Positions 934 to 20,992 of a DNA stretch of 64,000 nucleotides are shown in pieces (position 1 is the stretch's first letter; every line of letters starts with the position of its first letter). This DNA is from an uncultured bacterium (GTDB lineage: Bacteria; Babelota; Babeliae; Babelales; Babelaceae): contig OY970209.1 in NCBI GenBank assembly GCA_963713855.1, positions 416,001 to 480,000 on the forward strand, given 5' to 3'. A program made the translations under genes and the position numbers. The notes beneath the pieces were generated by a model that did no database searches, was not told the DNA's origin, and was given only the letters and a program-made list of their open reading frames with translations.

Positions 934-2049
934 TTGCTTACCATGTTTAGCACTTATAAAAAAAACAGAAGGAGAGCGTCAAAGCTCTCCTTCTGTTTTT
1001 TGAGTATATGCGCTGGTTTTTCTCAACTATTTCCCGGCGATTTTGCTAGTGCATTGAGAAAAAAAATCAAAAGAGACCCTCCGCCCTGGATGAGTGCGCA
1101 AATAGATACCGATTTAAGGCACTATAAAACTGGTATTACAAGAGCCGATATAGATGCTACCAAGTCTTCAATTATGTCTTATGCTCGTTGCAAGATAGGA
1201 GATAAGGGGATAACGATAGAAAGCAATGCCAAAAACGGTATTTCGCGCAATCGGCTAGATTTATTAAAAAGGGTCTTGCATAAGCTTCATAGGGCAGTAA
1301 AGCTTCCCAAACTCGATTTTTTAGTTGATCTTTTTGATGCGAGCGGATGTAAGGTAAAAAGAGCACCCGTTTTTTGTATCAGCAAGCATACCGACGATAC
1401 GCATGTAGTTCTAATGCCAGATTTCATAAAGTTTATGTGGGCTTCTACCTATATAAGTGACGTTTATCGGGGCAATAAGAGCTTTTCTTGGCATAGTAAA
1501 AAGCCACAAGCCTTGTGGCGGGGTTCGACGACTGGAGCGTTGGTTGATCATACGGATTTTGAACGTTTAAATCGTTCTAAATTGGTAGCACTTTCTCTTG
1601 AACATCCTAACCAGCTTAATGCACGTTTTTCTACAGTAACAAGGAATGATCGAAGGCTTGAAAAAATACTTAGGCAAAGGGGCATGTATAGCGATCATCT
1701 TTCTATGGCAGATCATCTTAAATATAAATATATACTCGCAGTTGACGGTAATACGTGGGCAAGTTCATATTTTTGGCAACTTTTTGGCAATTCTCTCATC
1801 TTAAAACAAGCCTCACCTTTTTCAGAGTGGTACCACGCAGCACTTAAAGCCTATACGCACTACGTGCCCTTTAATCGTGACCTGTCTGATCTTATAGAAC
1901 GTATTTCTTGGGCAAAAAAGAATGATAGAAAAGTGCGAGAGATAGTAAGGCAGGCTAACAACTTTGCTCGCTCGTATCTTAAAGAAGTAGATCTCTATTA
2001 CTATTTCTATCTGGCTCTGCGTGAGTACGAAAAGTTGCAGCGTTTCTAG
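934..2049 (+). CDS. Glycosyltransferase family 90 (CAP10/POGLUT-like)
   Basis: Motifs WRGSTTG, KYKYILAVDGN, EWYHAALKAYTHYVP, WAKKND; basic then hydrophobic N-terminus; paralog of 19850-20992; exact start uncertain. Confidence 0.82.
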   Translation: MLTMFSTYKKNRRRASKLSFCFLSICAGFSQLFPGDFASALRKKIKRDPPPWMSAQIDTDLRHYKTGITRADIDATKSSIMSYARCKIGDKGITIESNAKNGISRNRLDLLKRVLHKLHRAVKLPKLDFLVDLFDASGCKVKRAPVFCISKHTDDTHVVLMPDFIKFMWASTYISDVYRGNKSFSWHSKKPQALWRGSTTGALVDHTDFERLNRSKLVALSLEHPNQLNARFSTVTRNDRRLEKILRQRGMYSDHLSMADHLKYKYILAVDGNTWASSYFWQLFGNSLILKQASPFSEWYHAALKAYTHYVPFNRDLSDLIERISWAKKNDRKVREIVRQANNFARSYLKEVDLYYYFYLALREYEKLQRF

Positions 2050-2081
2050 GGACTGTGCTCAAATAAAAATCAGGGAAAAAT

Positions 2082-2296
2082 ACGCCTACGCGGCTAGCGG
2101 CAGGACATTGTCCTGCACCTGTTGCTTCTTTTGCGTCTTACATAATTATTGTGTATGAGATAGACCGGTTCCGGTCTATCTCATTAGGCACATTTACCAG
2201 AAAAGGAAATCCCTTTCTGGTAAATTAAACAACCATAAAAAATTTAAGCAGGGTGTGGGTCAAGGGCGTCTGCCCTTGCGCCCGCCGCGTAGGCGT
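2082..2296. repeat. Structured dispersed element, copy 1 (terminal inverted repeats plus four internal hairpins; MITE-like or ncRNA)
   Basis: acgcctacgcggc 2082-2094 pairs with gccgcgtaggcgt 2284-2296; hairpins at 2100-2116, 2155-2184, 2192-2225 and 2261-2278; clear homolog at 14970-15265. Confidence 0.9.
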
Positions 2297-3685
2297 CTAT
2301 TTTCCTACACAAAATTCTTTAAAAACCGTGTCCAAAGCCGCTTCGCTAATACTTTTTCCCGTAAGCTCAGTGCTTATTTCAAGAGCATTTTTAAGATGTA
2401 CCGAAACAAGCTCGTAATGAATGGTTCCGGACAGTAAATCGCAGATAATTTTTAGCTGTTCATCCAGAGCGGATAGCACTCTATGGTGGCGAGCATTAAG
2501 AAGGAAGGGAAGTTCTTGAGATTCCTTAAAAAGTTTTAGAACACATTGTTCGATGTGTTTTTCTATAAGCTCGGCATCTTTTTTTTGAATGCCAGAAACC
2601 TTTATTGCTGCTAATGTTGTAAAAGGGTCTTGCTTATATTCAGCTAAATCAGCTTTATTTTGCACAAGTATGCATTTATGGGGGTATTTATCGATAAGCG
2701 ACGTATACAAGATGCGCTCTTCGACCGTTAAGGGACGCGAGCCATCAAAGACAAGGAGGATACAATCAGCCTTTTGCGCTTCCGAAAGTGAACGCTGTAC
2801 CCCTTCTTGTTCAATCACGTCTTTCGTTTGCCGAATGCCGGCAGTGTCTATGAGTGTCCAAGAAGATCCTCTTACGCTTATGGTCGCTTCAACAGTATCT
2901 CTTGTTGTTCCTGGAAATTGGCTTACGATGGATCGGTTGTGGCCGATAAGATTGTTAAAGAGTGATGATTTGCCCGCGTTTACGGAGCCGATGAAGGCTA
3001 TGCGGATACCTTGACGTATTTGCTGATGCAGGTCAAATGTTTTTTTAAGATCGTGCACTCGTGTACGTATTTTTATAAGGTGCTCGTGTATGCGTGTACC
3101 AAATTCCTCTTCCTCATCAAGAAATTCAAAGCTTGCTTCACACCACGAAAGTGCTCTTAAAAGCTCCTCTTCGCATTCACGCACCCATCGCGAAAAGCTA
3201 CCTTCGAGCTGACAAAGTGATTTTTTAAGAGCTTGCTGCGTTTGAGCATGGATAAGCTCGTTAATCGCTTCTGCTTCCAGAAGATCTAATTTGCCATTGA
3301 AAAATGCTCTTTGAGAAAACTCTCCCTCTTGGGCAGGACGCGCTCCTTGCGCGATTGCAGCATCTAAAATAGCTTCAACAATATATTGATTGTTGTGACA
3401 GGTAATCTCGACCGTGTCTTGTCCGGTAAATGTGCGGGGAGCACGCATTATCGAAAACATCACCTGATCAATTGTGTTGCCGGATGTATCTTGTATAGCC
3501 CCAAAATGAATAGTATGGCTTTCGACCTGCGTTATGCTTTTTCGGGATGCAAGCACGCCTATAGCCCCTACAATACAACAAGCATCATTGCCTGATAAGC
3601 GTATAATGGCAAGAGCCCCACTGCCTTGTGGCGTAGCTTGGGCTATGATTGTTTGGTCATCGCGGCTCTGTAGCTTGTGTATCAT
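2297..3685 (-). CDS. mnmE: tRNA modification GTPase MnmE/TrmE
   Basis: TIIAQATPQGSGALAIIRLSG, GSVNAGKSS, PGTTRD, DTAG, NKAD and C-terminal FCVGK. Confidence 0.97.
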   Translation of the reverse strand: MIHKLQSRDDQTIIAQATPQGSGALAIIRLSGNDACCIVGAIGVLASRKSITQVESHTIHFGAIQDTSGNTIDQVMFSIMRAPRTFTGQDTVEITCHNNQYIVEAILDAAIAQGARPAQEGEFSQRAFFNGKLDLLEAEAINELIHAQTQQALKKSLCQLEGSFSRWVRECEEELLRALSWCEASFEFLDEEEEFGTRIHEHLIKIRTRVHDLKKTFDLHQQIRQGIRIAFIGSVNAGKSSLFNNLIGHNRSIVSQFPGTTRDTVEATISVRGSSWTLIDTAGIRQTKDVIEQEGVQRSLSEAQKADCILLVFDGSRPLTVEERILYTSLIDKYPHKCILVQNKADLAEYKQDPFTTLAAIKVSGIQKKDAELIEKHIEQCVLKLFKESQELPFLLNARHHRVLSALDEQLKIICDLLSGTIHYELVSVHLKNALEISTELTGKSISEAALDTVFKEFCVGK

Positions 3686-4286
3686 GAGCGATGTGGGTCA
3701 GTATAATTTTGTGCCCCTTAAATCCCGCCTTAAAGGCTTGCTTAAGGCTTTCAATGATAAGTGCCGCAAAGCTTGCTAGAAGCCTTTTTTCCTGGGCCTG
3801 TTGCTCGCACAGTGGTCTATTAAACATGATCCGGAGATAAAAATTTGAAGGCTCAATAGTAAATTGCACATTGTCTAAGTGCATGATGTTAAGTGTTTGC
3901 CTGACCCAGTCTTTGACAAAAGCTATGGTGGCATCATCCCAGAGTGTTTTGCGTTCTTTCCTTTCAGTAGCTTGTTTAGGAACAGCTTTTACCGGGGAAG
4001 GTCTTCGGGCTTCTGGGTGTGGCTCCGCATGTTTTGCAGCTTCGGACTGCTTCTGGTCTGCAGGTTTATGCACGGTCATTCTTTTAGGGTGCAATGCCTG
4101 GGGTTTTGATGCAGGGGTCACTTCAAAGTAAAGAGCTACCTTTGCTGATCGTATGGTAAACCCTAAGAAGTTTTTATGTGCTTCCTCTAAGACTTTTATA
4201 GTAAATTCTGCTGGTTTTCCAGCATTTTGCCAAGCTTGTTCTATTGCTTTGGCTATTGAAGAGGCTTCTTGCATAACAGATTTCAT
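3657..4286 (-). CDS. jag: Jag/KhpB (EloR)-like protein: Jag_N domain plus a degenerate KH-like region, no R3H domain
   Basis: SIAKAIEQA...IKVLEEAHKNFLGFTIRSAKV is Jag_N-like; canonical position directly upstream of mnmE. Confidence 0.75.
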   Translation of the reverse strand: MKSVMQEASSIAKAIEQAWQNAGKPAEFTIKVLEEAHKNFLGFTIRSAKVALYFEVTPASKPQALHPKRMTVHKPADQKQSEAAKHAEPHPEARRPSPVKAVPKQATERKERKTLWDDATIAFVKDWVRQTLNIMHLDNVQFTIEPSNFYLRIMFNRPLCEQQAQEKRLLASFAALIIESLKQAFKAGFKGHKIILTHIAHDTQATEPR

Positions 4287-4383
4287 ACCTAAATATTCCT
4301 TTTATGATAGTTGCTGTAAAGGCAGAACTATAAAGCAGATAAACTGGAAAAAGACACAGGCATCAAGAAACGCTCAGTATTAC

Positions 4384-4459
4384 TGGAGCGGGAAACGGGA
4401 TTTGAACCCGCGACCTTTGCCTTGGCAAGGCAACGCTCTGCCAACTGAGCTATTCCCGC
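4384..4459 (-). tRNA. tRNA-Gly(GCC)
   Basis: Reverse complement GCGGGAATAGCTCAGTTGGCAGAGCGTTGCCTTGCCAAGGCAAAGGTCGCGGGTTCAAATCCCGTTTCCCGCTCCA; cloverleaf, anticodon GCC, encoded CCA. Confidence 0.97.
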
Positions 4460-4627
4460 AACAACATCTTAATAATAAGTAATTCTGCCATAGATGTCAA
4501 ACCGCCAAGATCGTTTAAAAGGCCCCTTGCGTGCTTAAAAACATTAAGAAATTTCAAAGCAATTCTTTGATAACTTGTACATATCGGTTAAGCTGGTGCA
4601 GTGGTATTTATTTTTGGAGAGAAAAAT

Positions 4628-5236
4628 ATGATCGCGTATGTCGCGGGAACAATTCATGAAGCTCGCATTCAAAATGACTCCGTTCTTGCTGTAACAATTG
4701 TTGCACAATCGATAGGGTTTAGCATACAAATACCATCACGCGTGCCTGTCAAAATTGGGGGACTTTTGACCCTCGAGGTGTATACCCATTACACACAGGA
4801 GCACGGTACTCTATTATTTGGGTTTCAAACTACTGATGAAAAAGCCCTTTTTTCGCTTATTTTAAGCTGTTCCGGTATCGGGCCTAAGTTAGCTCTCGGT
4901 TTAGTTAACGCTTTCACACCAAGCACCTTCAAAGGGGCAATCATGAGTAACAATATCAAGCTCTTAAGTTCTGTCGATGGTGTAGGCGCCAAAAAAGCTG
5001 AAAGCATCATCATGCAGCTCAAGGACAAGGTTTCTAAGATGGCCGTAGCCCATGAAGTCGAAAATCCAGAATTACTGCGATTTAAACAATTGCATGACGC
5101 TTTTGGTGGGCTTGGTTACTCTCGCCTCGAGATTAATGACGTGCTTGAACATTTAAAAGGCGAAGATTTTCTCTTCAAAGCCCAATTTCCAGATCTTCTA
5201 CGAAAAGGACTCGCGTTTTTGTCCTCAAGAGCTTAG
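4628..5236 (+). CDS. ruvA: Holliday junction branch migration protein RuvA
   Basis: MIAYVAG start; LFGF, SGIGPKLAL, GVGAKKAESII, LGYS motifs. Confidence 0.95.
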   Translation: MIAYVAGTIHEARIQNDSVLAVTIVAQSIGFSIQIPSRVPVKIGGLLTLEVYTHYTQEHGTLLFGFQTTDEKALFSLILSCSGIGPKLALGLVNAFTPSTFKGAIMSNNIKLLSSVDGVGAKKAESIIMQLKDKVSKMAVAHEVENPELLRFKQLHDAFGGLGYSRLEINDVLEHLKGEDFLFKAQFPDLLRKGLAFLSSRA

Positions 5237-5514
5237 CTGATCGGCTTTTTAAAGGCCTTTCGAAGCTCTACCTTGGCTTTCTCTAGCCTTTTTTTATCAG
5301 CAGCTTTGAGTTTTTTGCCCGCTCTATTGATATAGAGGTTCAACATCGACATGGCTGACTGAAACTTAGTACCCTTCGTTCGAGAACTTTCATACACAGC
5401 TTTTTTTAGACCTTTGGCTATGCCTTCCGGATCTAGTGTAAAAATGCCCTCAGGAAGGTCCATAGCATTAGATGTGCGAGCAACTCGCTGAATCCACAAT
5501 GTTTTTTTATTCAT
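5233..5514 (-). CDS. DUF3175-like small basic protein
   Basis: SNAMDLPEGIFT...FQSAMSMLNLYINRAGK...LEKAKVELRKAF matches my recollection of DUF3175. Confidence 0.75.
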   Translation of the reverse strand: MNKKTLWIQRVARTSNAMDLPEGIFTLDPEGIAKGLKKAVYESSRTKGTKFQSAMSMLNLYINRAGKKLKAADKKRLEKAKVELRKAFKKPIS

Positions 5515-5687
5515 AACTTTTCCTTTTGGCTTAGGCTTTCTTTTAATTTAAAATAGACATAATATTGAAGTAAAGTATTTTATTTTGCTATCTTATTAAA
5601 AGAAAGGTTCTTCTTGAATAGAAATGCCTTCGTATTGGGCTTTGATAGCCTTTGAAAGATCTTAGAAAGAAAAAAAAGGAGATAGTA

Positions 5688-6038
5688 ATGAAAAAATTTT
5701 TAAGTTTAGCTTTTATCGGAGCTTTATTAAGCTCAGCGTCATTAGTTCGAGCAGTCGAGTTTGTATTTCATAATGACATGGATAAAGATGTAGTGCTTCA
5801 TCCAAACTATGATTCGACTCTTTGTACTACAAATCCGTTCAGAATTAACAAAAAATCATCCTACACTTTTGATGCCGGTAAGGCTTGTTACATGGTATTA
5901 AAATCTATAGATCTAACGGTGCCTGATAATCCTCACCTAATTGGTACTATAGATGACTTACCGCACGACATTTTTGGTAGTTATTCTATAACCATCAAAG
6001 AAGAAAACAACATGCTTACGGCAACTTTCAAGAAGTAA
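5688..6038 (+). CDS. Small secreted protein, tandem paralog 1
   Basis: RBS AAGGAG; signal peptide ending VRA; two Cys; LTVPxNPxL and IxEENN motifs shared with the two neighbours. Confidence 0.85.
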   Translation: MKKFLSLAFIGALLSSASLVRAVEFVFHNDMDKDVVLHPNYDSTLCTTNPFRINKKSSYTFDAGKACYMVLKSIDLTVPDNPHLIGTIDDLPHDIFGSYSITIKEENNMLTATFKK

Positions 6039-6192
6039 TGTTTTAAGTAGTTGAGTTAGGTCTATCTAGGCACTTTTTCGTTTTATCCGACCTTGATCTC
6101 TAATTTAAAAGGTGAGTTTGTAGTGTTGGATACTTGAGGGGTGAAGATATGACGGATTTAATTGGATCTAAACATACAAAAAGGAGATGGTA

Positions 6193-6555
6193 ATGAGTAA
6201 ATATGCCTTAGGTTTAGCTTTTATCGGAACTTTATTAGGCTCAGCGTCATTCGTTCAAGCTGACGATTTTACGTTTTACAACAAAACCGATAATGATGTA
6301 ATGGTTCATCCGAACTTCAGTTCGGACTATTGTAGTAATAATGCGCCGTCATTTATGGTGCCCAAAAAATCATCGCACCATTTTGATCCAGGGCAAACAG
6401 GGTGTTACCTATTATTAACATCCATGGACCTAACGGTTCCCGGTAATCCGCATCTTGTTGGCAACGTGCATGATTTACCCCGTGGTATGTTTGGCACCTA
6501 TTTTATATCGATTACTGAAGAGAACAACGCGCTTATTGGTAGTTTTAATAAGTAA
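6193..6555 (+). CDS. Small secreted protein, tandem paralog 2
   Basis: RBS AAGGAG; signal peptide ending VQA; same conserved motifs. Confidence 0.85.
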   Translation: MSKYALGLAFIGTLLGSASFVQADDFTFYNKTDNDVMVHPNFSSDYCSNNAPSFMVPKKSSHHFDPGQTGCYLLLTSMDLTVPGNPHLVGNVHDLPRGMFGTYFISITEENNALIGSFNK

Positions 6556-6767
6556 TATTTTAAATGGCTGAGTAGGCAGCTATTCAGCCGCTTCTTACTT
6601 TTTATCGACCTAGATCTGCGGTAAATAATTTGAAAGTTCATAGTGTTTGATATTTGAGAAGTTTGGAGGAAGATGATTTTTATTTAAGCCGCTTCTTTTG
6701 GCTTACCTTTCTGTTTAGTCGAAATAGAAATAATATTGAATTAAAATGTTTAAAGAAGGAGACGGCG

Positions 6768-7142
6768 ATGAATAACTATGCATTAAGTTTAGCTTTTATT
6801 GGAGTTTTATTAAGCTCGGTGTCTTTAGTTCAAGCGCGCGATATTGTGTTTTACAACCAAACCGATAAAGACGTGAAGGTTCGTCCGACCTACGACTCGG
6901 CTCGTTCGATGCACGACTTGTTGTATTGTAGCACGGTGCCATTTATAGTACCAAAAAAATCGTGGAAAGAGTTTCATGCAGGAAGTTGTTCCCAAGATCC
7001 GAAAGCCATATTTCTAACGGTGCCCGGCAATCCTCAGCTTTCTGGCTATGTACATGATTTACCACTAAGCAATTATGGCTCCCCCTATATAACCATTAAC
7101 GAGGAAAACAACGCAATTGCAGGTTACTCTGGTGTAACCTAG
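6768..7142 (+). CDS. Small secreted protein, tandem paralog 3
   Basis: Start moved to ATG 6768 after AAGGAG; signal peptide ending VQA; same motifs. Confidence 0.85.
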   Translation: MNNYALSLAFIGVLLSSVSLVQARDIVFYNQTDKDVKVRPTYDSARSMHDLLYCSTVPFIVPKKSWKEFHAGSCSQDPKAIFLTVPGNPQLSGYVHDLPLSNYGSPYITINEENNAIAGYSGVT

Positions 7143-7159
7143 CTCCATTTTGATACCTT

Positions 7160-9367
7160 CTATCCAATAAGGGGGTGATTTTTTTGTTCATTTTCAAAAC
7201 ATTGTTGCGTGCTTAAAGCTGTCACATCTATCGCCTGTGTTAAAAGGCGTGGTGCATGTAATTCAAGGCCGAGTTGAATAATAAGATCTATAAATTCCAT
7301 TGGCCTTAGTCCCCATTCTGCAGCTTGATGAAATAAGCACGTTGCGGGTGTAAGTCCTGGAAGCGTGTTGAGTTCCAAAACGATGACACGGTCAGTTTTT
7401 GTGGGGCTCATAGCGGCCGATTGATAAAAGCAATCGATTCGCGCGTATCCGGCGCAACCTGTCACTTTATAGGTATCTTCTATTGTTTTTAATACTAGCG
7501 TTGTTGCAGTTGCCGGTATCGGTGCCGGTGTTTGGTTTTCCCCTGCACCTGGCAAAAACTTTTCTTCTATAGACAAAACACCAGCTTGCGCAACTGTCAT
7601 GCTCGGTGGTAATGCTCGGCAGATACTATTACCCACAACTCCGACACTCAGCTCCAAACCTTCAATGCACTCTTCTATTAGTACCGCATTTTTGCCCGCA
7701 CCAAACACTTCATTAATCGCTTTTTTAAGCGCTGAAGCATTGGTAACTTTTGCGACCATAACGCTGCACCCGTCATCATGCGGTTTTACAATAAGGGGGA
7801 AGGGCGGCAAGCCGTGCTTTTCGGGATCATTATGCCACTCTTTCGCTTCAATAAGTACACCCGCTGGTACAGGTATACCGTGCTCTTTTAAAACTTGTTT
7901 TGTTTTCCATTTATCCATACAAAGAGCGCTTGCAAGAACGCCTGAGCCGTTATAAGGTATGCCGAGCGTTTCCAGTAATCCTTGTATAGAGCCGTTTTCG
8001 CCATGTCCTCCGTGCAACGCTACGAATGCAAAATCGATAAGATTCGGTAAGTCTTGCCAAGAGATTTTCATTGAAGAGGTAAGCTCAGCTTCTATCTCAG
8101 CAGTTGTGTTACGCACCAGCAGTCGTTGGTCGATGCAAAACAATTCTAAGTTTGAGCTTAAGAATAGCGGGATAGCCGCATATTTTTGTGGAGAAAGCTT
8201 ATAAATCACATTCCGCCCGGAGGCAAGAGAAATTTCTTTTTCGTTTGATTGGCCGCCTAAAAGAATACCAACGCGCATTTTTTTTGCGTCTGTAATTTTA
8301 GTGTCGTGTTTTAGGTTTTCTGCATTTTTAAGCATAGTGTACGTATGTAATTCGGTGGCTATAAGGTGGTTGATAAATTGGGTATGGCTCATATTTATCT
8401 CGGCCGCTTGCAGGAATGCAAGACTTGCTGGATCCATGCCAGAAAAAGTATTTGGGTCAATAATAACGACCCGATTATCATGTGTCAAAATACCATCAAT
8501 GCGTCCCAAGTTGTGTATACTCAAGGCTGACATAACGCGAAGGCATGTGTCTTTAATACGCTGCTCGGCTTCTTTTGTGCATCGTGCCGGTGTACGTTTT
8601 AAAGTTTTACCAGGCATGTATTTCTGCTCGTAATCAAAAAAGTCAGATCCCTCATTCAGGACTATCTCAGTTGGAGGAAGCGGTAAAAGAGTTTTTTTAG
8701 CGTAATCGGTAATGACAATGCACGAAAATTCCATGCCGCGTACATATTCTTCTATAAGCACTTTTTGCTGTATTCCCGGTGTGATAGTTCGTGCTTTTAT
8801 GATAGCACTTTGTAGTTCATGTTCGTTTTTTACCACGGTTATACCTAAGCTCGATCCCTCATGGCAAGGCTTTACGATGCAGGGAAATCCAAAAGGTGGC
8901 GTAGAAATGTTTTTATCATAAGGCTCGACGATAACTGCGTTTGGAACATCGATGTTTGCAGATTTTAAAAAAGTCCGCTGCATCACTTTGTCCATGCTTA
9001 GAGCGCTTGAAAATACTTTGGATCCGAAATAGGGGATGCCAAGAATTTCAAGAAAGCCTTGTATCGATCCATCCTCCGCGTACCTTCCATGCTGAGCTAT
9101 ATACATAAAATCAATGATCTGCTTAAGTGCATCCCATGCAACCGGCTCGGCTTCAGCTTCGAGCCGATGTTCAAAGTCACTTGTTTTACCGCGGTGCAAA
9201 AAATGGATTGGCATTTTATAGAGAGTGCCCGTTTTTGTTTGAAAAAGGGGAACAACGCGATAGCACGAGGTATCAAGATGATCGCACACCGTTCTTCCAG
9301 AATTCAATGAGACTTCGCGTTCTTGAGATTTACCACCCATAAGAACGCCAATGCGTAGACTGTGCAT
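7160..9367 (-). CDS. ddl: D-alanine--D-alanine ligase family protein with two tandem Ddl domains
   Basis: Two copies of GGxSxE(R/K)E(V/I)SLxSG, HGxxxE(D/N)GSIQG, MDK, IVKP; EY/EC ATP-grasp segments; start probably MHSLRIG at 9367. Confidence 0.9.
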   Translation of the reverse strand: MHSLRIGVLMGGKSQEREVSLNSGRTVCDHLDTSCYRVVPLFQTKTGTLYKMPIHFLHRGKTSDFEHRLEAEAEPVAWDALKQIIDFMYIAQHGRYAEDGSIQGFLEILGIPYFGSKVFSSALSMDKVMQRTFLKSANIDVPNAVIVEPYDKNISTPPFGFPCIVKPCHEGSSLGITVVKNEHELQSAIIKARTITPGIQQKVLIEEYVRGMEFSCIVITDYAKKTLLPLPPTEIVLNEGSDFFDYEQKYMPGKTLKRTPARCTKEAEQRIKDTCLRVMSALSIHNLGRIDGILTHDNRVVIIDPNTFSGMDPASLAFLQAAEINMSHTQFINHLIATELHTYTMLKNAENLKHDTKITDAKKMRVGILLGGQSNEKEISLASGRNVIYKLSPQKYAAIPLFLSSNLELFCIDQRLLVRNTTAEIEAELTSSMKISWQDLPNLIDFAFVALHGGHGENGSIQGLLETLGIPYNGSGVLASALCMDKWKTKQVLKEHGIPVPAGVLIEAKEWHNDPEKHGLPPFPLIVKPHDDGCSVMVAKVTNASALKKAINEVFGAGKNAVLIEECIEGLELSVGVVGNSICRALPPSMTVAQAGVLSIEEKFLPGAGENQTPAPIPATATTLVLKTIEDTYKVTGCAGYARIDCFYQSAAMSPTKTDRVIVLELNTLPGLTPATCLFHQAAEWGLRPMEFIDLIIQLGLELHAPRLLTQAIDVTALSTQQCFENEQKNHPLIG

Positions 9368-9503
9368 GCTTATTTTTTCTTCCATGAAAGATATACTCAA
9401 AAAGTGTATCATCAACATATGTAGTGTCACAAGAAAAAACTTGTGAGTATTTGCTTCCACTTGTTACTCTATAAATCGATAAAGAACATAAGGATTTTTT
9501 GTA

Positions 9504-10088
9504 ATGCTTCCCGACACTCTTTTTTGGATAGATTTGGAAATGACAGGGTTAGATCCTGATCGCGACACTATTATCGAAATTGCAAGTGTGGTAACGCAAA
9601 GTACTCTCGAATTTATCGCGCAAGGGCCTTCCTTTGTGATTCATCAACCTGACTCCATTCTTGATGCCATGGATGACTGGAATAAAAATCAGCACAGAAA
9701 ATCAGGCCTATGGTCCCAAGTACAAGCGTCCACCGTGACGTTACCTCAGGCATACGAGGCCACCTTAGCTTTTGCGACTCAGTACTGTAGACCTCGTATT
9801 ACGCCAGTATGCGGAAACTCCGTATACCAAGATCGTGCATTTTTAAGAAGACTCATGCCAGAGCTTGATCGCTATTTCCATTACCGGATCATCGATGTCA
9901 CCACGGTTAAAGAACTCGTACGTCGCTGGTATCCAAAAGATAAGTGTGTTTACTTTGAAAAAAGCACCGACCACAGAGCACTTTCAGATGTATATGCTTC
10001 AATAGAAGAACTAAAGCACTACCGTAAGCACTTTTTCAGAACTGTCGCTGAGCTAGAAGGCTTGCAAGAAGCCCAACCCACGTTTTAA
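9504..10088 (+). CDS. orn: Oligoribonuclease
   Basis: WIDLEMTGLDP, CGNSVYQDRAFL, HYRIIDV, HRALSD. Confidence 0.97.
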   Translation: MLPDTLFWIDLEMTGLDPDRDTIIEIASVVTQSTLEFIAQGPSFVIHQPDSILDAMDDWNKNQHRKSGLWSQVQASTVTLPQAYEATLAFATQYCRPRITPVCGNSVYQDRAFLRRLMPELDRYFHYRIIDVTTVKELVRRWYPKDKCVYFEKSTDHRALSDVYASIEELKHYRKHFFRTVAELEGLQEAQPTF

Positions 10089-10488
10089 CTGAAGCGAATG
10101 TGTTAAACTCTTCGCGCAATACCGTCTCAATTAAAAACCACTCAATTTTGCTTGACTCAGTCATATTCCAAACAAGGTTTGCTTTTTCGTCAGCAATCCC
10201 CGCATAGATAATGTCTATATGTTCTTTTTGGCCTTCTTTTATAACGTTACGCTGTATGCCAAAAGGCCTAACCATTCCACCGCTTACAGGAGCTTTTTCG
10301 CCAATAAGAGTAACTGTTAAGCCAGTTTCTTCTAAGCACTCGCGCAAGGCGGCATCTTCGGGGGTTTCATTGGCATCTATTTTGCCACCTGGTGGTAACC
10401 ATTTGCGGAGCTTCTTGTGATCAATACACACTGTTTTTGTAAAATCTTCGTTAAAAACGTAGACCGTAACGCAAAGCAGTCTTTCCAT
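10036..10488 (-). CDS. NUDIX hydrolase
   Basis: Nudix box GGKIDANETPEDAALRECLEETGL. Confidence 0.92.
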   Translation of the reverse strand: MERLLCVTVYVFNEDFTKTVCIDHKKLRKWLPPGGKIDANETPEDAALRECLEETGLTVTLIGEKAPVSGGMVRPFGIQRNVIKEGQKEHIDIIYAGIADEKANLVWNMTESSKIEWFLIETVLREEFNTFASVKTWVGLLASLLAQRQF

Positions 10489-10490
10489 GC

Positions 10491-11639
10491 TTATTCAAAA
10501 AGTAGAGTTTGAGCGGTAATTTCAAAGTAAGCATTTGCGTTTGACGGCACTGTAGCGTTTTCAGTAACTTGAGGTATAAGTGGCATTTGTTGTTCTTGCT
10601 GCCCTGGCCAAGTGCTCATTATCTCATTTTGCAGTTTTTCAAGTCTTAAAAGCAATTCTTTTACGTCAATGCCGTGTTTTTTAGCATAAGCTTTTACGAT
10701 TTGCTTTTTAATCTTTTTCCACCCATATTTTACAAGATCTCTAAAGCGCTCATGATCTCTATGCAAGATGTCAGTAATGCTGTGACGATTAGGAAGCTCG
10801 TGATCGTGATAATAAACTCTACCCTGATTATCGACGCTTACGGCGTTGCCCATAGTCCAATATCCGGTGTAAGCGGTAAGACGTACCAGAGAAGTAAGAA
10901 TTTCTTCATCCAATGCTAGGGGCGACTCTGAAAGAGGCGTTAATGGTCCGAGATAAAGCTCTACTACAACGTAGTTTGTATCTTCAACTTCGAGCGGTCG
11001 ACCCGGTATATGTACTAAATGGGTTTCTGGTATATGAATGTTTGTTATACCGAAAGTGCGTAATGCTTCTCGGGCGCGTAGATAGATCATAGCCCGGCTT
11101 ATGTTCTGGTACACTCTGCCATACAAAGGCTCTGCGTTAAATCGCTGCCATTCTTCTTGGGTTAAGATGCGCCCATAAGGGGTGTTGCTTTTTGTCCAGT
11201 GACCCGCATCCATAGATGCTAAGGTGTCAACGACATTTTGACGAGAAATAGCTACTTTCGATCGTTTTATAACCCATGCATTATCAACGTTGATGATATA
11301 AGAATGTCGATTTTCAATAAGAGGTACGTTGTTATCGACGAGTTCTTTGTCGATACCGGCAGCAAGCGCTTTTCGTTCTTCTGCTGAACCCGTAAAGAAG
11401 ATCTCTAGATGATCTGCTCCAGAAAGTATATGACCGATACCGTATCTTTCGATGAAGCCTTCTATCTGGCCTCTTACGTCGGGATCAAGCAAAGCCTCTT
11501 TTTCAAGTAGTTCAAGAAGATTTGAAGATGTGATTTCCTCACCGTTATACGTGCCGTACGATTCTTCCTTGGGTTGATGCATCCCATAAGCTGTTGAACA
11601 TGCTATTAAAATGAAGGTTGCTATATATCTATAGTTCAT
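10491..11639 (-). CDS. Secreted hypothetical protein, possible kinase-like fold (paralog B)
   Basis: Start moved to MNYRY at 11639 by alignment to the adjacent paralog; signal peptide; long identical blocks shared with 11629-12816. Confidence 0.8.
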   Translation of the reverse strand: MNYRYIATFILIACSTAYGMHQPKEESYGTYNGEEITSSNLLELLEKEALLDPDVRGQIEGFIERYGIGHILSGADHLEIFFTGSAEERKALAAGIDKELVDNNVPLIENRHSYIINVDNAWVIKRSKVAISRQNVVDTLASMDAGHWTKSNTPYGRILTQEEWQRFNAEPLYGRVYQNISRAMIYLRAREALRTFGITNIHIPETHLVHIPGRPLEVEDTNYVVVELYLGPLTPLSESPLALDEEILTSLVRLTAYTGYWTMGNAVSVDNQGRVYYHDHELPNRHSITDILHRDHERFRDLVKYGWKKIKKQIVKAYAKKHGIDVKELLLRLEKLQNEIMSTWPGQQEQQMPLIPQVTENATVPSNANAYFEITAQTLLFE

Positions 11640-12816
11640 TACGTTCCTTAATGAGTTTTTGACTCTCAAGCTCGACGCCAGAAAGATCAGGTGTATGAGC
11701 AACATTTTCTTGTGTCGTAACATTTGTTGTATGCTCTTCTTGACTGGAAGCTTGACGCACCAGGCTATCCATTATCTCTTCCTCTAGAAGATGCAAATTA
11801 TCAAGAAGCTTCGTTCCATCCACCGTGTAACTTAAACCACAACTATTAATTGCTTTAACATAGATGTTAATAACTTGTTCTTCGAGTTGGAGCCACCCAT
11901 ATTTAACAAGGTTTCTAAAACGAACGTGATCTCTATGCAAGATATCGGTAATGCTGTGACGATTAGGAAGCTCGTGGTCATGATAATATACGCGTCCCAA
12001 GTTATCGACGCTTACAGCATCTCCCATTGTCCACCAGCCTGTGTAAGCGGTAAGGCGTACGAGTGAAGTGTGGACTTCTTCATCTATCGCAATCGCTGGA
12101 AAAAGAGCTAACGGCGTTAATTCTCCAACGTGGCGTTCAACAACAACGTAATTTCTATCCTCGACCTCATAAGGTCTTCCTGGAATATGTACCAGATGAG
12201 TTTCAGGTATGTGAATGTTCGAGATTCCTAGCTTTAGTAGTCCTTCGCGTGCTCTCAAATAAACCATCGCCCGACTAACATTTTGATAGATCCTGCCGTT
12301 AAAAGGTTCGGCGTTAAAACGTGACCATTCCTCTCGACTTAAGAGACGCAAATATTCGCCTGGGTCTTGGGTAAAGCTTGGCTGACCAATTGTTGCAAAT
12401 GTATCACAAACGTTTTGGCGACCAAGATGTACTTTTGAACGTTTTATTAACCATTTATTATCAACGTTAATGATAAAGGAATTGGGAGCCGCGATAAGTG
12501 GAATCTTTTTGTCTTTTAATTCGCTCTCTATATCATCTGCAAGTTTTGTGCGTTCTTCTTCAGTACCCGTGAAAAATAGTTCTTGGTGGTCTGCTCCGGA
12601 TAAGATATGTGCTATGCCAGATGTTTCAATAAATTCTTCTAAGCTCTTTCTTACTTGAGGATCAAGCGGTGCTTCTTTTTCAAGAAGTTCTAAAAGATTA
12701 AAGGGCGTAATTTCTTCATCTTGATAGGTACCATAAGAAACTTTTTTAGGTTGCTGCATACCCTGCGCTACTGTGAATGTTGCTAAAACAATTGCAGCTG
12801 CGTATCTGTAGTTCAT
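11629..12816 (-). CDS. Secreted hypothetical protein, possible kinase-like fold (paralog A)
   Basis: GAGG RBS; signal peptide; shared HIPETHLVHIPGRP and YYHDHELPNRHSITDILHRDH blocks. Confidence 0.82.
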   Translation of the reverse strand: MNYRYAAAIVLATFTVAQGMQQPKKVSYGTYQDEEITPFNLLELLEKEAPLDPQVRKSLEEFIETSGIAHILSGADHQELFFTGTEEERTKLADDIESELKDKKIPLIAAPNSFIINVDNKWLIKRSKVHLGRQNVCDTFATIGQPSFTQDPGEYLRLLSREEWSRFNAEPFNGRIYQNVSRAMVYLRAREGLLKLGISNIHIPETHLVHIPGRPYEVEDRNYVVVERHVGELTPLALFPAIAIDEEVHTSLVRLTAYTGWWTMGDAVSVDNLGRVYYHDHELPNRHSITDILHRDHVRFRNLVKYGWLQLEEQVINIYVKAINSCGLSYTVDGTKLLDNLHLLEEEIMDSLVRQASSQEEHTTNVTTQENVAHTPDLSGVELESQKLIKERNEL

Positions 12817-12870
12817 TAGTTTCCTCTATTAACATCATATGAGAACAGTATATCACAGCTTTTACGGCGG

Positions 12871-14844
12871 TTACATACTCAAGGGGTTTGGAGTAAAAAA
12901 GTGACTGCTTTCAAATGCGTGACTTTGCAGTTCCCTATAAAGCCTTATAATCTCATTGATGTTTGCGCCTTTCAGGTACAACTTCCGAATATGCACATTC
13001 TGTATCTTATGTACTGGTGGTTGCGAGGGCCCCAGTAACTGAAGTGTACTTTTTTGAGCGTCAATGAAAGCTAGAAGCAATGTAGCTGCTCTATCCGCTT
13101 CTGCGTCAACGATTGTTTCGTTTCGGTGACGCATTTCGATCTCTGCAAATCGAGTGAGTGGGGGATAAGATACTTGGGCTCTTTGTGCAGTTTCGTAGGT
13201 ATAAAAATCTAAGTACTTTGTTTCGGTCAAATATGACCAGAGCGGATGGTCAAGCATGGTTTGTGCTATGACGAGGCTTTCAGGGTGGTATCTGCCCGCT
13301 CTACCTGCAACCTGAATAAGCTGCTGTAACGTAATTTCTGCTGCGTTATACGACGGCATACCTAAATGCATATCCGCCCAAATAATGCCCACAAGCGTAA
13401 CATTTGGAAAGTGGTATCCTTTGGTAATTGTTTGAGTTCCCACCAGTATATCGAGCTTTTGGCTTTCAAAGTCCTCCATCGTCTTTTGCCACATGCGTCG
13501 ATTAACCGTTGTATCTAAATCTGCTCGGGCAATGCGAGCTTTTGGAAACAGTTTTTGCAGAATGCTTACTATTTGCTGAGTACCGATGCCTTTTTTGATA
13601 AACTCTTTCTTTGCACAGGAGGTACAAGAAGAAGGAGTCTCTTTCTGCAACGTGCAGTAATGGCAGCGAAGTATATTTCCTTCGTGGAGGGTCAGAGAAA
13701 CCGAACATGAAGAGCAGCTTATTATAAAGCCGCACGACCCACACTGAATGAAAAAGCTGTATCCCCTTCTATTTATAAAAATGAGCGACTGTTCACCCTT
13801 TTTAAGTCTTTCGCCAAGTGCAGCCTCAAGCTCTTTACTGATCCAAAAAGATGTTCTTTTGACTATGTTTTTAAGCTTTACAATCTTAAGTTGTGGAAAC
13901 GCACCCTCAAAACGGTTATGAAGCGTTAATAACTTCCAGTTTTTTGTATGTGTGTTATAGAGCGAGCTGATTGATGGTGTTGCCGATCCAAGAAGAATAG
14001 GTATTTTATGGGCTGCAGCTCTCATAAGAGCAGCTTCTTTACTGTTTATTTTAGGGTGCTTTTTTTCTTGATAACCCTGCTCATGTTCTTCATCAACAAT
14101 AATAAGGCCGAGATCGGGCAGTGGAAGCAGTATCGGTAAATGAACACCAATTACAAGCGCACGCTGGTTGTTTTTGATAGCTTTCCACAGCTGCTTTTTT
14201 TCAGAAGCGCTTGTTGCTGAATGAAATCCAAAAATAGGCACTCTGTTGCCAAAATATTTCTTGAGCATCGTACTAAATTGAACAGCTAATGAGACTTCTG
14301 GAAGCATCAAAATCACCGATTTTGATAAAGCATGTGCGTGCTCAATGAGTGTTTGATAAATGATTGTTTTGCCCGAGCCTGTAACCCCATGAAGTAAAAA
14401 TGTCCCATGTTGAGAGTTTGTGATTGTGGGCAAGATTGAATCTACGACTCTTTGTTGTTCAGCCGTAAGAACAGGGCGAACAAGTAGCCCGTCGGAGCCA
14501 TTACCCATAACAGTGGGATCTTTCTGTTCCTTTTGTTGCAAAAAGCTTGAAAGCCTTTGATAAAGTACCCGAGGGTCAAGTACGTAGTAGCTGCTTAGAT
14601 TTTTTAAAAACGACTGGTACCGATCTTCGTTAAGACCGCTCTCATAACCATGAAGCTCTTTAATAGCGTACGACGGTGTTACCAAAAGCTCTTTACATTT
14701 GGTTTCTATAATGGCTAGCTCGAGCCTATTTTGCAAAGGAACCGTTACAATCATTCCTGCTTTAGGCTCCAAAGGCGAATCTAAGGGAATTTTATAAGTA
14801 AGCCTTCCTTGCCAGCCGTTAAGAAGCCTAACCGTAATATACAT
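12871..14844 (-). CDS. priA: Primosomal protein N' (PriA helicase)
   Basis: LLHGVTGSGKT, DEEH, GSATPS, NRRGYS, four CxxC, ILVGTQ, QVAGRAGR; start probably ATG 14844. Confidence 0.96.
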   Translation of the reverse strand: MYITVRLLNGWQGRLTYKIPLDSPLEPKAGMIVTVPLQNRLELAIIETKCKELLVTPSYAIKELHGYESGLNEDRYQSFLKNLSSYYVLDPRVLYQRLSSFLQQKEQKDPTVMGNGSDGLLVRPVLTAEQQRVVDSILPTITNSQHGTFLLHGVTGSGKTIIYQTLIEHAHALSKSVILMLPEVSLAVQFSTMLKKYFGNRVPIFGFHSATSASEKKQLWKAIKNNQRALVIGVHLPILLPLPDLGLIIVDEEHEQGYQEKKHPKINSKEAALMRAAAHKIPILLGSATPSISSLYNTHTKNWKLLTLHNRFEGAFPQLKIVKLKNIVKRTSFWISKELEAALGERLKKGEQSLIFINRRGYSFFIQCGSCGFIISCSSCSVSLTLHEGNILRCHYCTLQKETPSSCTSCAKKEFIKKGIGTQQIVSILQKLFPKARIARADLDTTVNRRMWQKTMEDFESQKLDILVGTQTITKGYHFPNVTLVGIIWADMHLGMPSYNAAEITLQQLIQVAGRAGRYHPESLVIAQTMLDHPLWSYLTETKYLDFYTYETAQRAQVSYPPLTRFAEIEMRHRNETIVDAEADRAATLLLAFIDAQKSTLQLLGPSQPPVHKIQNVHIRKLYLKGANINEIIRLYRELQSHAFESSHFFTPNPLSM

Positions 14845-14969
14845 AACGTACTTTCTAAAACTGATACTTAAAAAGGTACAGAGTACCTCCAATAAAAGCA
14901 AATACTTGACTATCAAGCACTTTTTTCTTTAGGTACTAGTCCTTAGATAGTGAGTGAAAGAGAAATAGG

Positions 14970-15265
14970 CGCCTACGCGGCGAGCGGCAGGACCCTCCAC
15001 TAATCGCCCTCTGCGAGGGCTGTTGCGGACCAATCATGCCTTACTTGGCATGGTATGGTTCCTGCACCTGTTGCTTGTTTTGCATGTTACATACTTATTG
15101 TGTATGAGATAGACCGGAAAATCCGGTCTATCTCATTAGCACATATACCAGAAAGGGAACCCCTTTCTGGTATATTAAATAACCATAAAAAGTTTAAGAA
15201 GGGTGTGGGTCAATGGGTCATAAAGCCTGGGTCAAGGGCACGCCCTTGCGCTCGCCGCGTAGGCG
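14970..15265. repeat. Structured dispersed element, copy 2 (expanded)
   Basis: Perfect 17-bp terminal IR cgcctacgcggcgagcg (14970-14986 / 15249-15265); same hairpins as copy 1, with an insertion in the loop of the first hairpin and another just before the last hairpin. Confidence 0.9.
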
Positions 15266-15300
15266 TATTCTTCTCCCATTTTTATGTAGCACAGAAAAAA

Positions 15301-15828
15301 TTAGGTCAGCGGTTTTTCTATAAAATCTAGGGCCGCCTTAGCAGCTTGATCAATGAGCACTTTAACCTCGTCCGGTGACTGGTTAAATTGTTCAAGGACG
15401 AAAATAGAAACGTTTTCAGGTTTTTCAGGTCTTCCAGTACCCACGCGTAAACGTACAAAGTCGCTTCCAGCAAAGGTAACGATAGACTTAAGTCCGTTAT
15501 GCCCTCGTGCGCTTCCACCGTGTTTTACCGCGACTTTTCCAAACGGTAACTCAAGCTCGTCATGCACCACAAGCATCTCTTCAGGCTTTATCCCCTGTTT
15601 TGTTAAAAAAGGAATGACTTGGCCCGACGCGTTCATGAATGTTTGGGGCTTTACAAGAAGAAGAGAATGCCCAGCGTGAGAAGTTTGCGCTATTTCCATA
15701 GTTTCGCGCTGTCGCCACGTAGCACCAAGTTGTTGTGCAATCGCATCTAGCACACGAAACCCAATACTGTGTCGGGTGACGTAATATTTCGTGCCTGGGT
15801 TTCCTAGACCAATAATTACTTTAATCAT
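15301..15828 (-). CDS. pth: Peptidyl-tRNA hydrolase
   Basis: GLGNPG, TRHSIGF, KPQTFMNASG, VVHDEL, GHNGLKS. Confidence 0.97.
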   Translation of the reverse strand: MIKVIIGLGNPGTKYYVTRHSIGFRVLDAIAQQLGATWRQRETMEIAQTSHAGHSLLLVKPQTFMNASGQVIPFLTKQGIKPEEMLVVHDELELPFGKVAVKHGGSARGHNGLKSIVTFAGSDFVRLRVGTGRPEKPENVSIFVLEQFNQSPDEVKVLIDQAAKAALDFIEKPLT

Positions 15829-15888
15829 GCATTCATCTCTAAGTATCAGCAAGTGGGGGGCTCTAAAATCCCCCCATCTTTGTGATCT

Positions 15889-19849: not shown

Positions 19850-20992
19850 ATGTATAAAAAGTTGTTAAGTGTGTTGCTATTTATTATAGTCATTTTACAG
19901 GTCGACGTGAGTTTTGGTCAATCCTCCTATAAGGAACGCTTGGTTGCTTTAGTAGAAGATAACCGAATACCTGTATGGATGTCCGAGCAGATTAAGAGCG
20001 ATCTAGAGCCTTTTAAAGCGAACCGTATACCGCTTGAGTCGATTTGCGAGACCTCCCCGAAGTGGCAGACCTCGGGTGTTGTTCGCTATACTATCAAAGA
20101 GGGAAAATTAACAATACATCCTTCTCCGCTTTGTTCAACTCTCAGTGTACTTGAATCGAGATGCAAGCAGTATAATGCTATTGTTAAAGCGTTAACCGAT
20201 ACAATACGCGTACCTGATGTTGAATTCACCGTATATCTGGGGGATGGGTTTATAGGCGGAAATTCACACACCCTGCCAGGGCCTATATTTGGTTTTTCGA
20301 AAGACAAAAATTTAGACACGAATGCTCTATTAGTTCCAGACTTTCATGCATTAGAGATCTATCCGCCGCTTATTGAGGATGTTGAAATAGGAAATAGGGC
20401 ATATCCTTGGCATGTCAAAGTCAATAAGGCCTTTTGGAGAGGAGCTAGCACCTGTAATTATCTCGACATAACTCTGAGTAATTATACCGCTTGCCCCAGG
20501 CTCAAATTAGTAGAAATAGCACGTATCAATTCTGATTTGATTGACGCTGGTTTAACCATGTGTGTACAAATGGATGAAGAGACCAGAAAGCTATTCTCAA
20601 ACTATCTCGTATCTTCAGTATCCGTGAGTGAGCACCTTAAATATAAGTACCTCATTTTAACAGATGGTAACGGAGCCGCTTATCCACGGGGGTTTTGGCA
20701 TTTATTTGGTAATTCTGTTGTTTTTAAGCAAAAGTCGGACAGTGTACAATGGTTCTATCGAGGCTTGAAACCATTTGTGCATTTTATTCCTTTTAATGAA
20801 GATTTTAGCGATTTAATTGAAAAGATACAATGGGCAACGAACCATGATGCAGAAACCCGTTTTATCGCAGCTCAAGGCCGCGCCTTTGCTCTAAACAATC
20901 TATGCTTAGAAAATAACTTGTTTTATTTGTATATCTTACTCAAGGAATTTTCTGCACTACAACAAGCCAGTAATTATAAGCAAGAGCTATAG
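19850..20992 (+). CDS. Glycosyltransferase family 90 (CAP10/POGLUT-like)
   Basis: FWRGAST, HLKYKYLILTDGN, QWFYRGLKPFVHFIP; signal peptide. Confidence 0.85.
   Translation: MYKKLLSVLLFIIVILQVDVSFGQSSYKERLVALVEDNRIPVWMSEQIKSDLEPFKANRIPLESICETSPKWQTSGVVRYTIKEGKLTIHPSPLCSTLSVLESRCKQYNAIVKALTDTIRVPDVEFTVYLGDGFIGGNSHTLPGPIFGFSKDKNLDTNALLVPDFHALEIYPPLIEDVEIGNRAYPWHVKVNKAFWRGASTCNYLDITLSNYTACPRLKLVEIARINSDLIDAGLTMCVQMDEETRKLFSNYLVSSVSVSEHLKYKYLILTDGNGAAYPRGFWHLFGNSVVFKQKSDSVQWFYRGLKPFVHFIPFNEDFSDLIEKIQWATNHDAETRFIAAQGRAFALNNLCLENNLFYLYILLKEFSALQQASNYKQEL

Follow-up and report, generated by a model that had tools for sequence, protein, structure and literature searches.

Two copies of a hairpin repeat in the window

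The window analysed here is a 64,000-nt stretch of the genome of an uncultured bacterium of the Babelaceae (GenBank assembly GCA_963713855.1, contig OY970209.1, positions 416,001 to 480,000 of the forward strand). It harbours two copies of a non-coding, multi-hairpin repeat, in which an inner hairpin cassette (the core) is set within outer segments termed A and B (the shell). Coordinates below are those of the window unless marked as genomic. Copy 1 follows a glycosyltransferase family 90 gene (934–2049, plus strand; PF05686), whose TAG stop codon (2047–2049) overlaps both a YTAG target and the first base of the element. The TA of this CTAG target (2047–2048) is likely a 2-bp target duplication, judging from the TA found on both sides of the putative parent insertion sequence (IS) described below. 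Next come outer end B (2049–2082, plus strand), which represents the left inverted repeat of an IS5/IS427-type element in degraded form, and the cassette (2083–2295, plus strand; genome 418083–418295), which is of the B-left isomer and lies on the putative leading strand. The cassette opens with a left end unit (2083–2119, plus strand) made up of a 12-nt head, a hairpin (2100–2116) and the trinucleotide ACC, a unit common to repeats in other phyla. Two longer hairpins follow, H2 (2155–2184; 14-bp stem, 2-nt loop) and H3 (2192–2225; 15-bp stem with one A-C mismatch, 4-nt loop), and the cassette closes with an inverted right end unit (2258–2295, minus strand; hairpin 2261–2278, head 2284–2295). 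The stop codon of mnmE (2297–3685, minus strand) adjoins the cassette, which thus lies between convergent genes.

Copy 2 has its core in the other isomer. The longest open reading frame (ORF) of priA (12871–14916, minus strand) lies downstream of it on the minus strand, followed by the TA of a TTAG target (14930–14931) and by outer end A (14932–14969, minus strand), which comprises the right inverted repeat together with about the last nine codons and the stop of an IS5/IS427-type transposase. The cassette (14970–15265, plus strand; genome 430970–431265) is of the A-left isomer and again lies on the putative leading strand. The loop of its first hairpin carries a two-hairpin module of ~65 nt (14994–15059), and H2 (15104–15136), H3 (15143–15175) and the right end unit (15230–15265, minus strand; hairpin 15233–15248, head 15249–15265) follow. 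Outer end B (15266–15298, minus strand) has a degraded tip and no YTAG at the expected place. The stop codon of pth (15301–15852, minus strand) is 35 nt from the cassette, with a few bases between it and the end B tip.

The original prediction, made on the letters of the window, had taken these for a two-copy element. BLASTN with the window copies as queries instead returned 21 loci in the 1.52-Mb genome, of which the window pair are two. All 21 sit between called ORFs or overlap gene ends only, their inner parts measure 213–313 bp (one copy being truncated), and the median core identity among copies is 88%. As a short, non-coding, multi-copy repeat the family resembles a prokaryotic MITE (miniature inverted-repeat transposable element). 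The structural features claimed for the window pair are all present in the sequence, namely four hairpins in the same order, a compensatory change of an A-T to a T-A pair between the copies, perfect inverted repeats of 13 bp (2082–2094 and 2284–2296) and 17 bp (14970–14986 and 15249–15265), and the ~65-nt insertion in the first hairpin of copy 2, which turned out to be common to 4 of the 21 copies. The inverted repeats are not the termini they were thought to be; they are internal, and the element runs 33–38 bp further on each side where intact. Similarly, the TA dinucleotides noted near the ends exist, but belong to the outer segments, the likely target duplication lying further out at YTAG. 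The two copies do follow minus-strand translation genes (mnmE stop at 2297–2299, pth stop at 15301–15303), but this association is not kept across the 21 copies.

Two further observations concern the placement of the family. The stretch of the 1.52-Mb contig with the putative origin, its first 580 kb, contains sixteen of the 21 copies. Several neighbouring genes end within the outer segment of the element and take their last codons and stop from it (genome 319794, 480704, 65350, 4683 and 22306).

Outer ends and a related insertion sequence in a sister species

Outside the inner 12-nt head, every copy has a conserved segment, either A (~38 bp) or B (~33 bp), and no solo A or B ends were found above background in the genome. 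A sister species (G001, sampled as 80 of its 81 stretches) carries at locus L262 a broken, parent-like IS of 809 bp and of IS5/IS427 type, which consists of a DUF4096 ORF with a premature stop followed by a DDE_Tnp_1 ORF, has inverted repeats (IRs) matching at 11 of 14 positions and is flanked by TA on both sides. Its size, two-ORF DDE transposase, short IRs and TA flanks agree with the IS427 group as given in Table 2 of PMC3281130, where members such as IS1248 and ISPaes1 measure 832–865 bp with IRs of 12–21 and direct repeats mostly of 2. Alignment of the left end of the L262 IS with the majority B end of our repeat gave 22 identical positions out of 23 nt. For the majority A end, 22 of 30 nt agree with the right end of the IS and its final transposase codons, so that the repeat shares its ends with a transposase-bearing IS, as a MITE does. 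The corresponding match scores (42 for B, 32 for A) exceed the 99.9th percentile of a background of 3,000 random windows (29 and 26, respectively) and rank first when 28 related IS5 loci are compared. BLASTN with the L262 IS as query independently recovered three B ends (E 0.007–0.024). A scan of 214 genomes of the phylum located the B-end pattern in two, namely this genome and, once, the sister species, where it sits at the L262 IS. The search proposed earlier for a transposase gene with the same ends yielded an IS with matching ends in the sister species and none in this genome.

The outer boundaries are marked by a target-like motif. YTAG adjoins 25 of 41 outer ends, compared to 7% in the background, and is present at both ends in 9 of 20 copies, with no nucleotide-level empty site for comparison. 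At seven ends, copy 1 included, the TAG of this motif is the stop codon of a gene.

The cassette is found free-standing in the sister species, where exact head motifs number 94 and fall into 53 clusters; both ends are present in 27 of these clusters, and A or B ends in none. The inner cassette is thus a repeat separate from the IS5 shell. In only one of the 21 cases does a repeat of the sister species adjoin the same gene end, about one being expected by chance on rough arithmetic, and three gene intervals are conserved there without the motif. Of the two options left by the original prediction, a structured RNA and a non-autonomous mobile DNA element, the latter is supported by the 21 dispersed intergenic copies, by outer ends in common with those of an IS5-family element, by the YTAG that marks its boundaries and by the different sites in the sister species. 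Many of the free-standing cassettes have one end adjoining two to five degenerate tandem pentamers (GAATT/GAATC/GAATA type) that resemble a short junction tail (e.g. C2:118813–119191, C2:124683 and C2:921591).

Core orientation and a probable composite origin

Core and shell differ in how they are oriented in the chromosome. Because a motif search of the ORF set found no dnaA, origin and terminus were placed by GC skew alone (minimum at 395,569, maximum at 1,196,910), and the leading strand was assigned from these points. The core lies on that strand in 19 of 21 copies (p = 2e-4), whereas the shell does so in 8 of 21 (p = 0.38). Relative to the shell, the core is A-left in 13 and B-left in 7 of the 20 scored copies, the window holding one of each. 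Core direction follows replication at all 11 sites between convergent genes, a location over-represented in the family (11 of 21 copies, compared to 19% genome-wide; p = 7e-4). The orientation label requires six changes on the core tree (shuffled mean 6.0). In one case, copies e1197393 and e1503951, which are separated by 306 kb, carry the same core sequence in opposite isomers within unlike shells. Substitutions from the majority sequence amount to 16% and 22% in the shells, 8–12% in the linkers and 1–7% in the stems. Once inserted, the core was probably turned round and homogenised by a process coupled to the replication fork. A polar word of the KOPS (FtsK orienting polar sequence) or Chi type was considered as the cause of core polarity and rejected, the words of the core being only mildly skewed (mean leading fraction 0.54–0.55, best 0.73).

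The middle of the cassette, between its inverted end units of head, short GC-rich hairpin and ACC, is made up of the two long hairpins and exchangeable modules. In two copies (genome 561508 and 570927) a hairpin module usual at the right end of the core is also present at the left end, which points to end-to-end conversion.

We consider it probable that the repeat is a composite, IS5-derived MITE which was spread into YTAG sites by a transposase now lost, and whose hairpin core was later flipped or overwritten in place in a replication-linked manner. The first step would have been replacement of the interior of an IS427-type element by a free hairpin repeat like those of the sister species. 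The IS transposase, acting in trans, would then have inserted the composite with TA duplication and in random orientation, and most of the copies to persist would have been intergenic ones, frequently located at TAG stop codons. After loss of the transposase the shells would have decayed, while the 12–17-bp inverted ends of the core may have allowed inversion and copy-to-copy conversion on single-stranded DNA (ssDNA) at the fork, with one orientation favoured. On this account the element is ordinary selfish DNA, and any role as a terminator or in mRNA stability would be secondary. The random IS5 shell around a younger, fork-pointing core separates insertion from later turnover, and the nesting offers an opportunity to test whether repeats in bacteria undergo inversion or gene conversion polarised by replication.

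A number of observations weigh against this composite-MITE account. At the level of mobility, a search of this genome (91% complete) for a transposase of the L262 IS family (DDE_Tnp_1/DUF4096) gave 0 matches. The putative parent in the sister species is itself interrupted by a premature stop, so that mobilisation by that IS is presumed. Sixteen of the 41 outer ends lack YTAG, and copy 1 has no outer end A at its right, where mnmE ends. A nucleotide-level empty site could not be read in the sister species because that species is too distant (median protein identity 52%), and a repeat is also present there in the mnmE–OmpA interval, albeit beside the other gene. At the level of the core, most of the tree lacks resolution, 2 of its 17 branches being starred, and core polarity in the sister species, where the skew is noisy, is 25 of 41 (p = 0.21). 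In other phyla, polarity by local skew is mixed (10/23, 14/19 and 3/18) and confounded by relatedness and gene strand. Lastly, H2 has changed at 10 of 560 positions compared to 61 of 687 in the linkers, a gap that arm conversion alone does not predict.

Alternative readings and related repeats

The end unit of the cassette extends well beyond this genome. It is multi-copy in the sister species and in two further genomes (G067 and G068), with matches in 6 of 261 genomes of the phylum, two of these being single matches. A scan of species genomes returned 113 loci with the end unit, including loci in Clostridia, Binatus-type deltaproteobacteria, Planctomycetota and Chloroflexaceae. Thirty-six were inspected by eye, one being a chance match within a gene. 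In other phyla the interiors differ and some loci are tandem arrays, for example head-to-tail arrays of the end unit at L067:2501–2653 in a Clostridiaceae genome (39-bp period) and near 2501 of L117 (~25-bp period). Related repeats occur at orthologous intergenic sites in six pairs of genomes (L053/L089, L070/L110, L066/L073, L120/L127, L086/L105 and L077/L130), and in the pair L066/L073 the ends are kept around a different interior. No recurring mobile gene stands beside the motif in the 80 of the 113 loci examined for one. Across several phyla the end motif is present in multiple copies, and no enzyme was found next to it.

A form of the end hairpin from a Planctomycete (L086:2400–2545) matches ~25 nt at 92–96% identity in some 3,000 plasmid records, each single match having a weak E value (0.1–5). 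The matches adjoin the relaxosome genes nikA or mobC in transfer-origin regions of enterobacterial plasmids (L317:1201–1225 and L318:1201–1225). The GC-rich hairpin beside nikA and mobC has a role in transfer termination in R64. This genome's own element does not share the match to the hairpin of these MOBP plasmids; with copy 2 as query, BLASTN of plasmids and phages gave chance matches only. Pattern scans of viral contigs and metagenome contigs gave none, although entries from this genome or its closest relatives may be missing from those sets. No relaxase domain was found in this genome. One may speculate, though we regard it as doubtful, that the cassette belongs to a cross-phylum class, not yet described, akin to repetitive extragenic palindromic (REP) sequences, with head-and-hairpin ends derived from relaxase (oriT-type) sites, whose members move or overwrite one another as ssDNA at the fork; the random IS5 shell would then serve as a built-in control that exposes this turnover.

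The strongest competitor to a composite that moved as one unit is insertion in two steps, in which an empty IS5 MITE (A and B shell) spread first and the cassette, an independent single-strand element, then entered each shell on the template of the lagging strand, in the manner of IS200/IS605, by means of a putative HUH enzyme. Such a sequence of events would directly explain a random shell around a polarised core, and it could draw on the free cassettes without A or B ends in the sister species, on the Planctomycete hairpin matching beside plasmid relaxosome genes, on the orientation of IS200/IS605 elements following the lagging-strand template (as described in part of PMC5027513) and on REP dimers nested in longer palindromes (on record in part of PMC3733652). 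We nevertheless find it unlikely, as this genome contains neither an empty shell nor a shell-less core, and neither a Y1 transposase nor a MOBP relaxase domain (0 matches). The REP-associated tyrosine transposase (RAYT, a Y1 enzyme) is likewise missing (0 PF01797 matches), the motif lies near none of 10 Y1 loci from four other genomes or 12 relaxase loci, and the lack of a recurrent mobile gene beside the 80 loci counts against this reading too.

A second competitor is a multi-copy structured RNA, or else a cis-acting RNA element that serves as a stabiliser or as a terminator in both directions, maintained because its fold is under selection. Both window copies fold far better than their shuffles (z = -11.2 on the plus and -11.8 on the minus strand for copy 1; -11.9 and -11.7 for copy 2), with no shuffle folding as well on either strand. 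H2 and H3 show Watson-Crick compensatory changes, stems are more conserved than linkers, and both the preference for convergent genes and the retention of related repeats at orthologous sites in several related-genome pairs would suit such a role. However, the two strands fold equally well, and the stem mismatches are balanced between G-T on the plus strand (4) and A-C (5). The loops occur as reverse complements of one another, in 7 versus 2 copies for H2 and in 6 versus 1 and 1 versus 1 for H3, and the core flips relative to its neighbours, following replication at all 11 convergent sites, where the neighbours set no preferred direction. Rfam 15 detected only tmRNA and a tRNA in the window at gathering score, leaving the element without a family; below that score the best E value was 0.1, at copy 2, so the check for a known structured RNA came out negative. 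Promoter scans found no promoter-like site at either window copy or in the core, and terminator-like matches are near chance. With loops present in flipped form, no bias of G-U pairs towards either strand and nothing matching in Rfam, a structured RNA is unlikely; we would accord this reading even less credence than stepwise insertion.

The covariation itself has another possible source. The compensated pairs are Watson-Crick and strand-symmetric (13 cells, including alignment shifts in three copies), and together with the flipped loops they are the trace that one would expect from inversion and arm-to-arm conversion of DNA hairpins. The compensatory changes do not require the earlier claim of selection on structure, since arm-to-arm conversion of DNA may also have produced them. 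Stems do change less than linkers. The slow change of H2 and of the stems leaves some constraint possible. DNA-level arm conversion can mimic RNA covariation, which makes it a trap for structured-RNA screens.

An active switch that would control neighbouring genes by having a site-specific recombinase invert the core at the inverted repeats inside it is very hard to credit, since the existence of both isomers is offset by a 19:2 bias towards the direction of replication that a switch would not predict, by a single tyrosine recombinase domain found in this genome (the sister species also has one; the search did not extend to serine recombinases) and by a core with no promoter-like site.

Among characterised repeats, the Correia elements of Neisseria are intergenic MITEs with modular cargo and are comparable to the composite described here. 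Our searches of the open-access literature, supplements excluded, retrieved no description of this repeat family. The BrickBuilt MITE of Porphyromonas gingivalis is similar in having ~20 intergenic copies with modular repeat cargo (PMC4596501, in part). The cargo of BrickBuilt and Correia elements consists of minisatellite or simple indel modules, in contrast to the flipping multi-hairpin cassette here. IS-derived MITEs, as portrayed in sections of PMC10969869, are alike in being short, non-coding, multi-copy and intergenic, in their stable predicted folds and in sharing ends with an IS. The present interior, however, is no deleted transposase: it is a hairpin cassette of unrelated sequence that has inverted ends of its own, occurs in either orientation and is replication-polarised.

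The IS200/IS605 family is alike in its hairpin ends and replication-tied orientation (PMC5027513, in part), and the 19 of 21 cores on the leading strand conform to this, the bias in the sister species (25 of 41) not being significant. The IS200 elements of the sister species have different end hairpins, and no Y1 transposase with the present ends was found. The element here has outer inverted repeats and a likely TA duplication, features that the IS200/IS605 family is not known to have.

Paired inverted hairpin units around a structured spacer are also seen in REPINs (REP doublets forming hairpins), in bacterial interspersed mosaic elements (BIMEs) and in REP dimers within longer palindromes, such as GTAG-15 of Anabaena variabilis and CGTC-1 of Halothiobacillus neapolitanus (PMC3733652, in part). 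Nested REP dimers are thus already in print, and they resemble our repeat further in being regularly enclosed by a second, longer imperfect palindrome, with no empty form found. The outer palindrome here differs from that of REPs and REPINs in being traceable to IS5 ends. REPs bear a GTAG or CGTC tag at the foot of a palindrome of 20–40 bp, but no hairpin here is tagged in this way, GTAG falling within the 12-nt head with no palindrome after it. The element has those features of MITEs that could be tested, the target duplication being a likely one, and lacks those that would make it a member of the REP or IS200/IS605 families. Further related literature includes PMC3184786.

The window contains several other features of note. 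Three tandem paralogous small ORFs (5652–7142) encode proteins of 122–162 aa with signal-peptide-like starts and a common internal motif. They are followed by a 766-aa ORF (7160–9460) that by eye resembles two fused D-Ala-D-Ala-ligase-like halves, and by two tandem paralogous minus-strand ORFs of ~400 aa (10491–12816), the 410-aa one having no match in the sister species. Lastly, the glycosyltransferase-90-like gene adjoining copy 1 (934–2049), itself without a match in the sister species, has a similar counterpart at 19850–20992.

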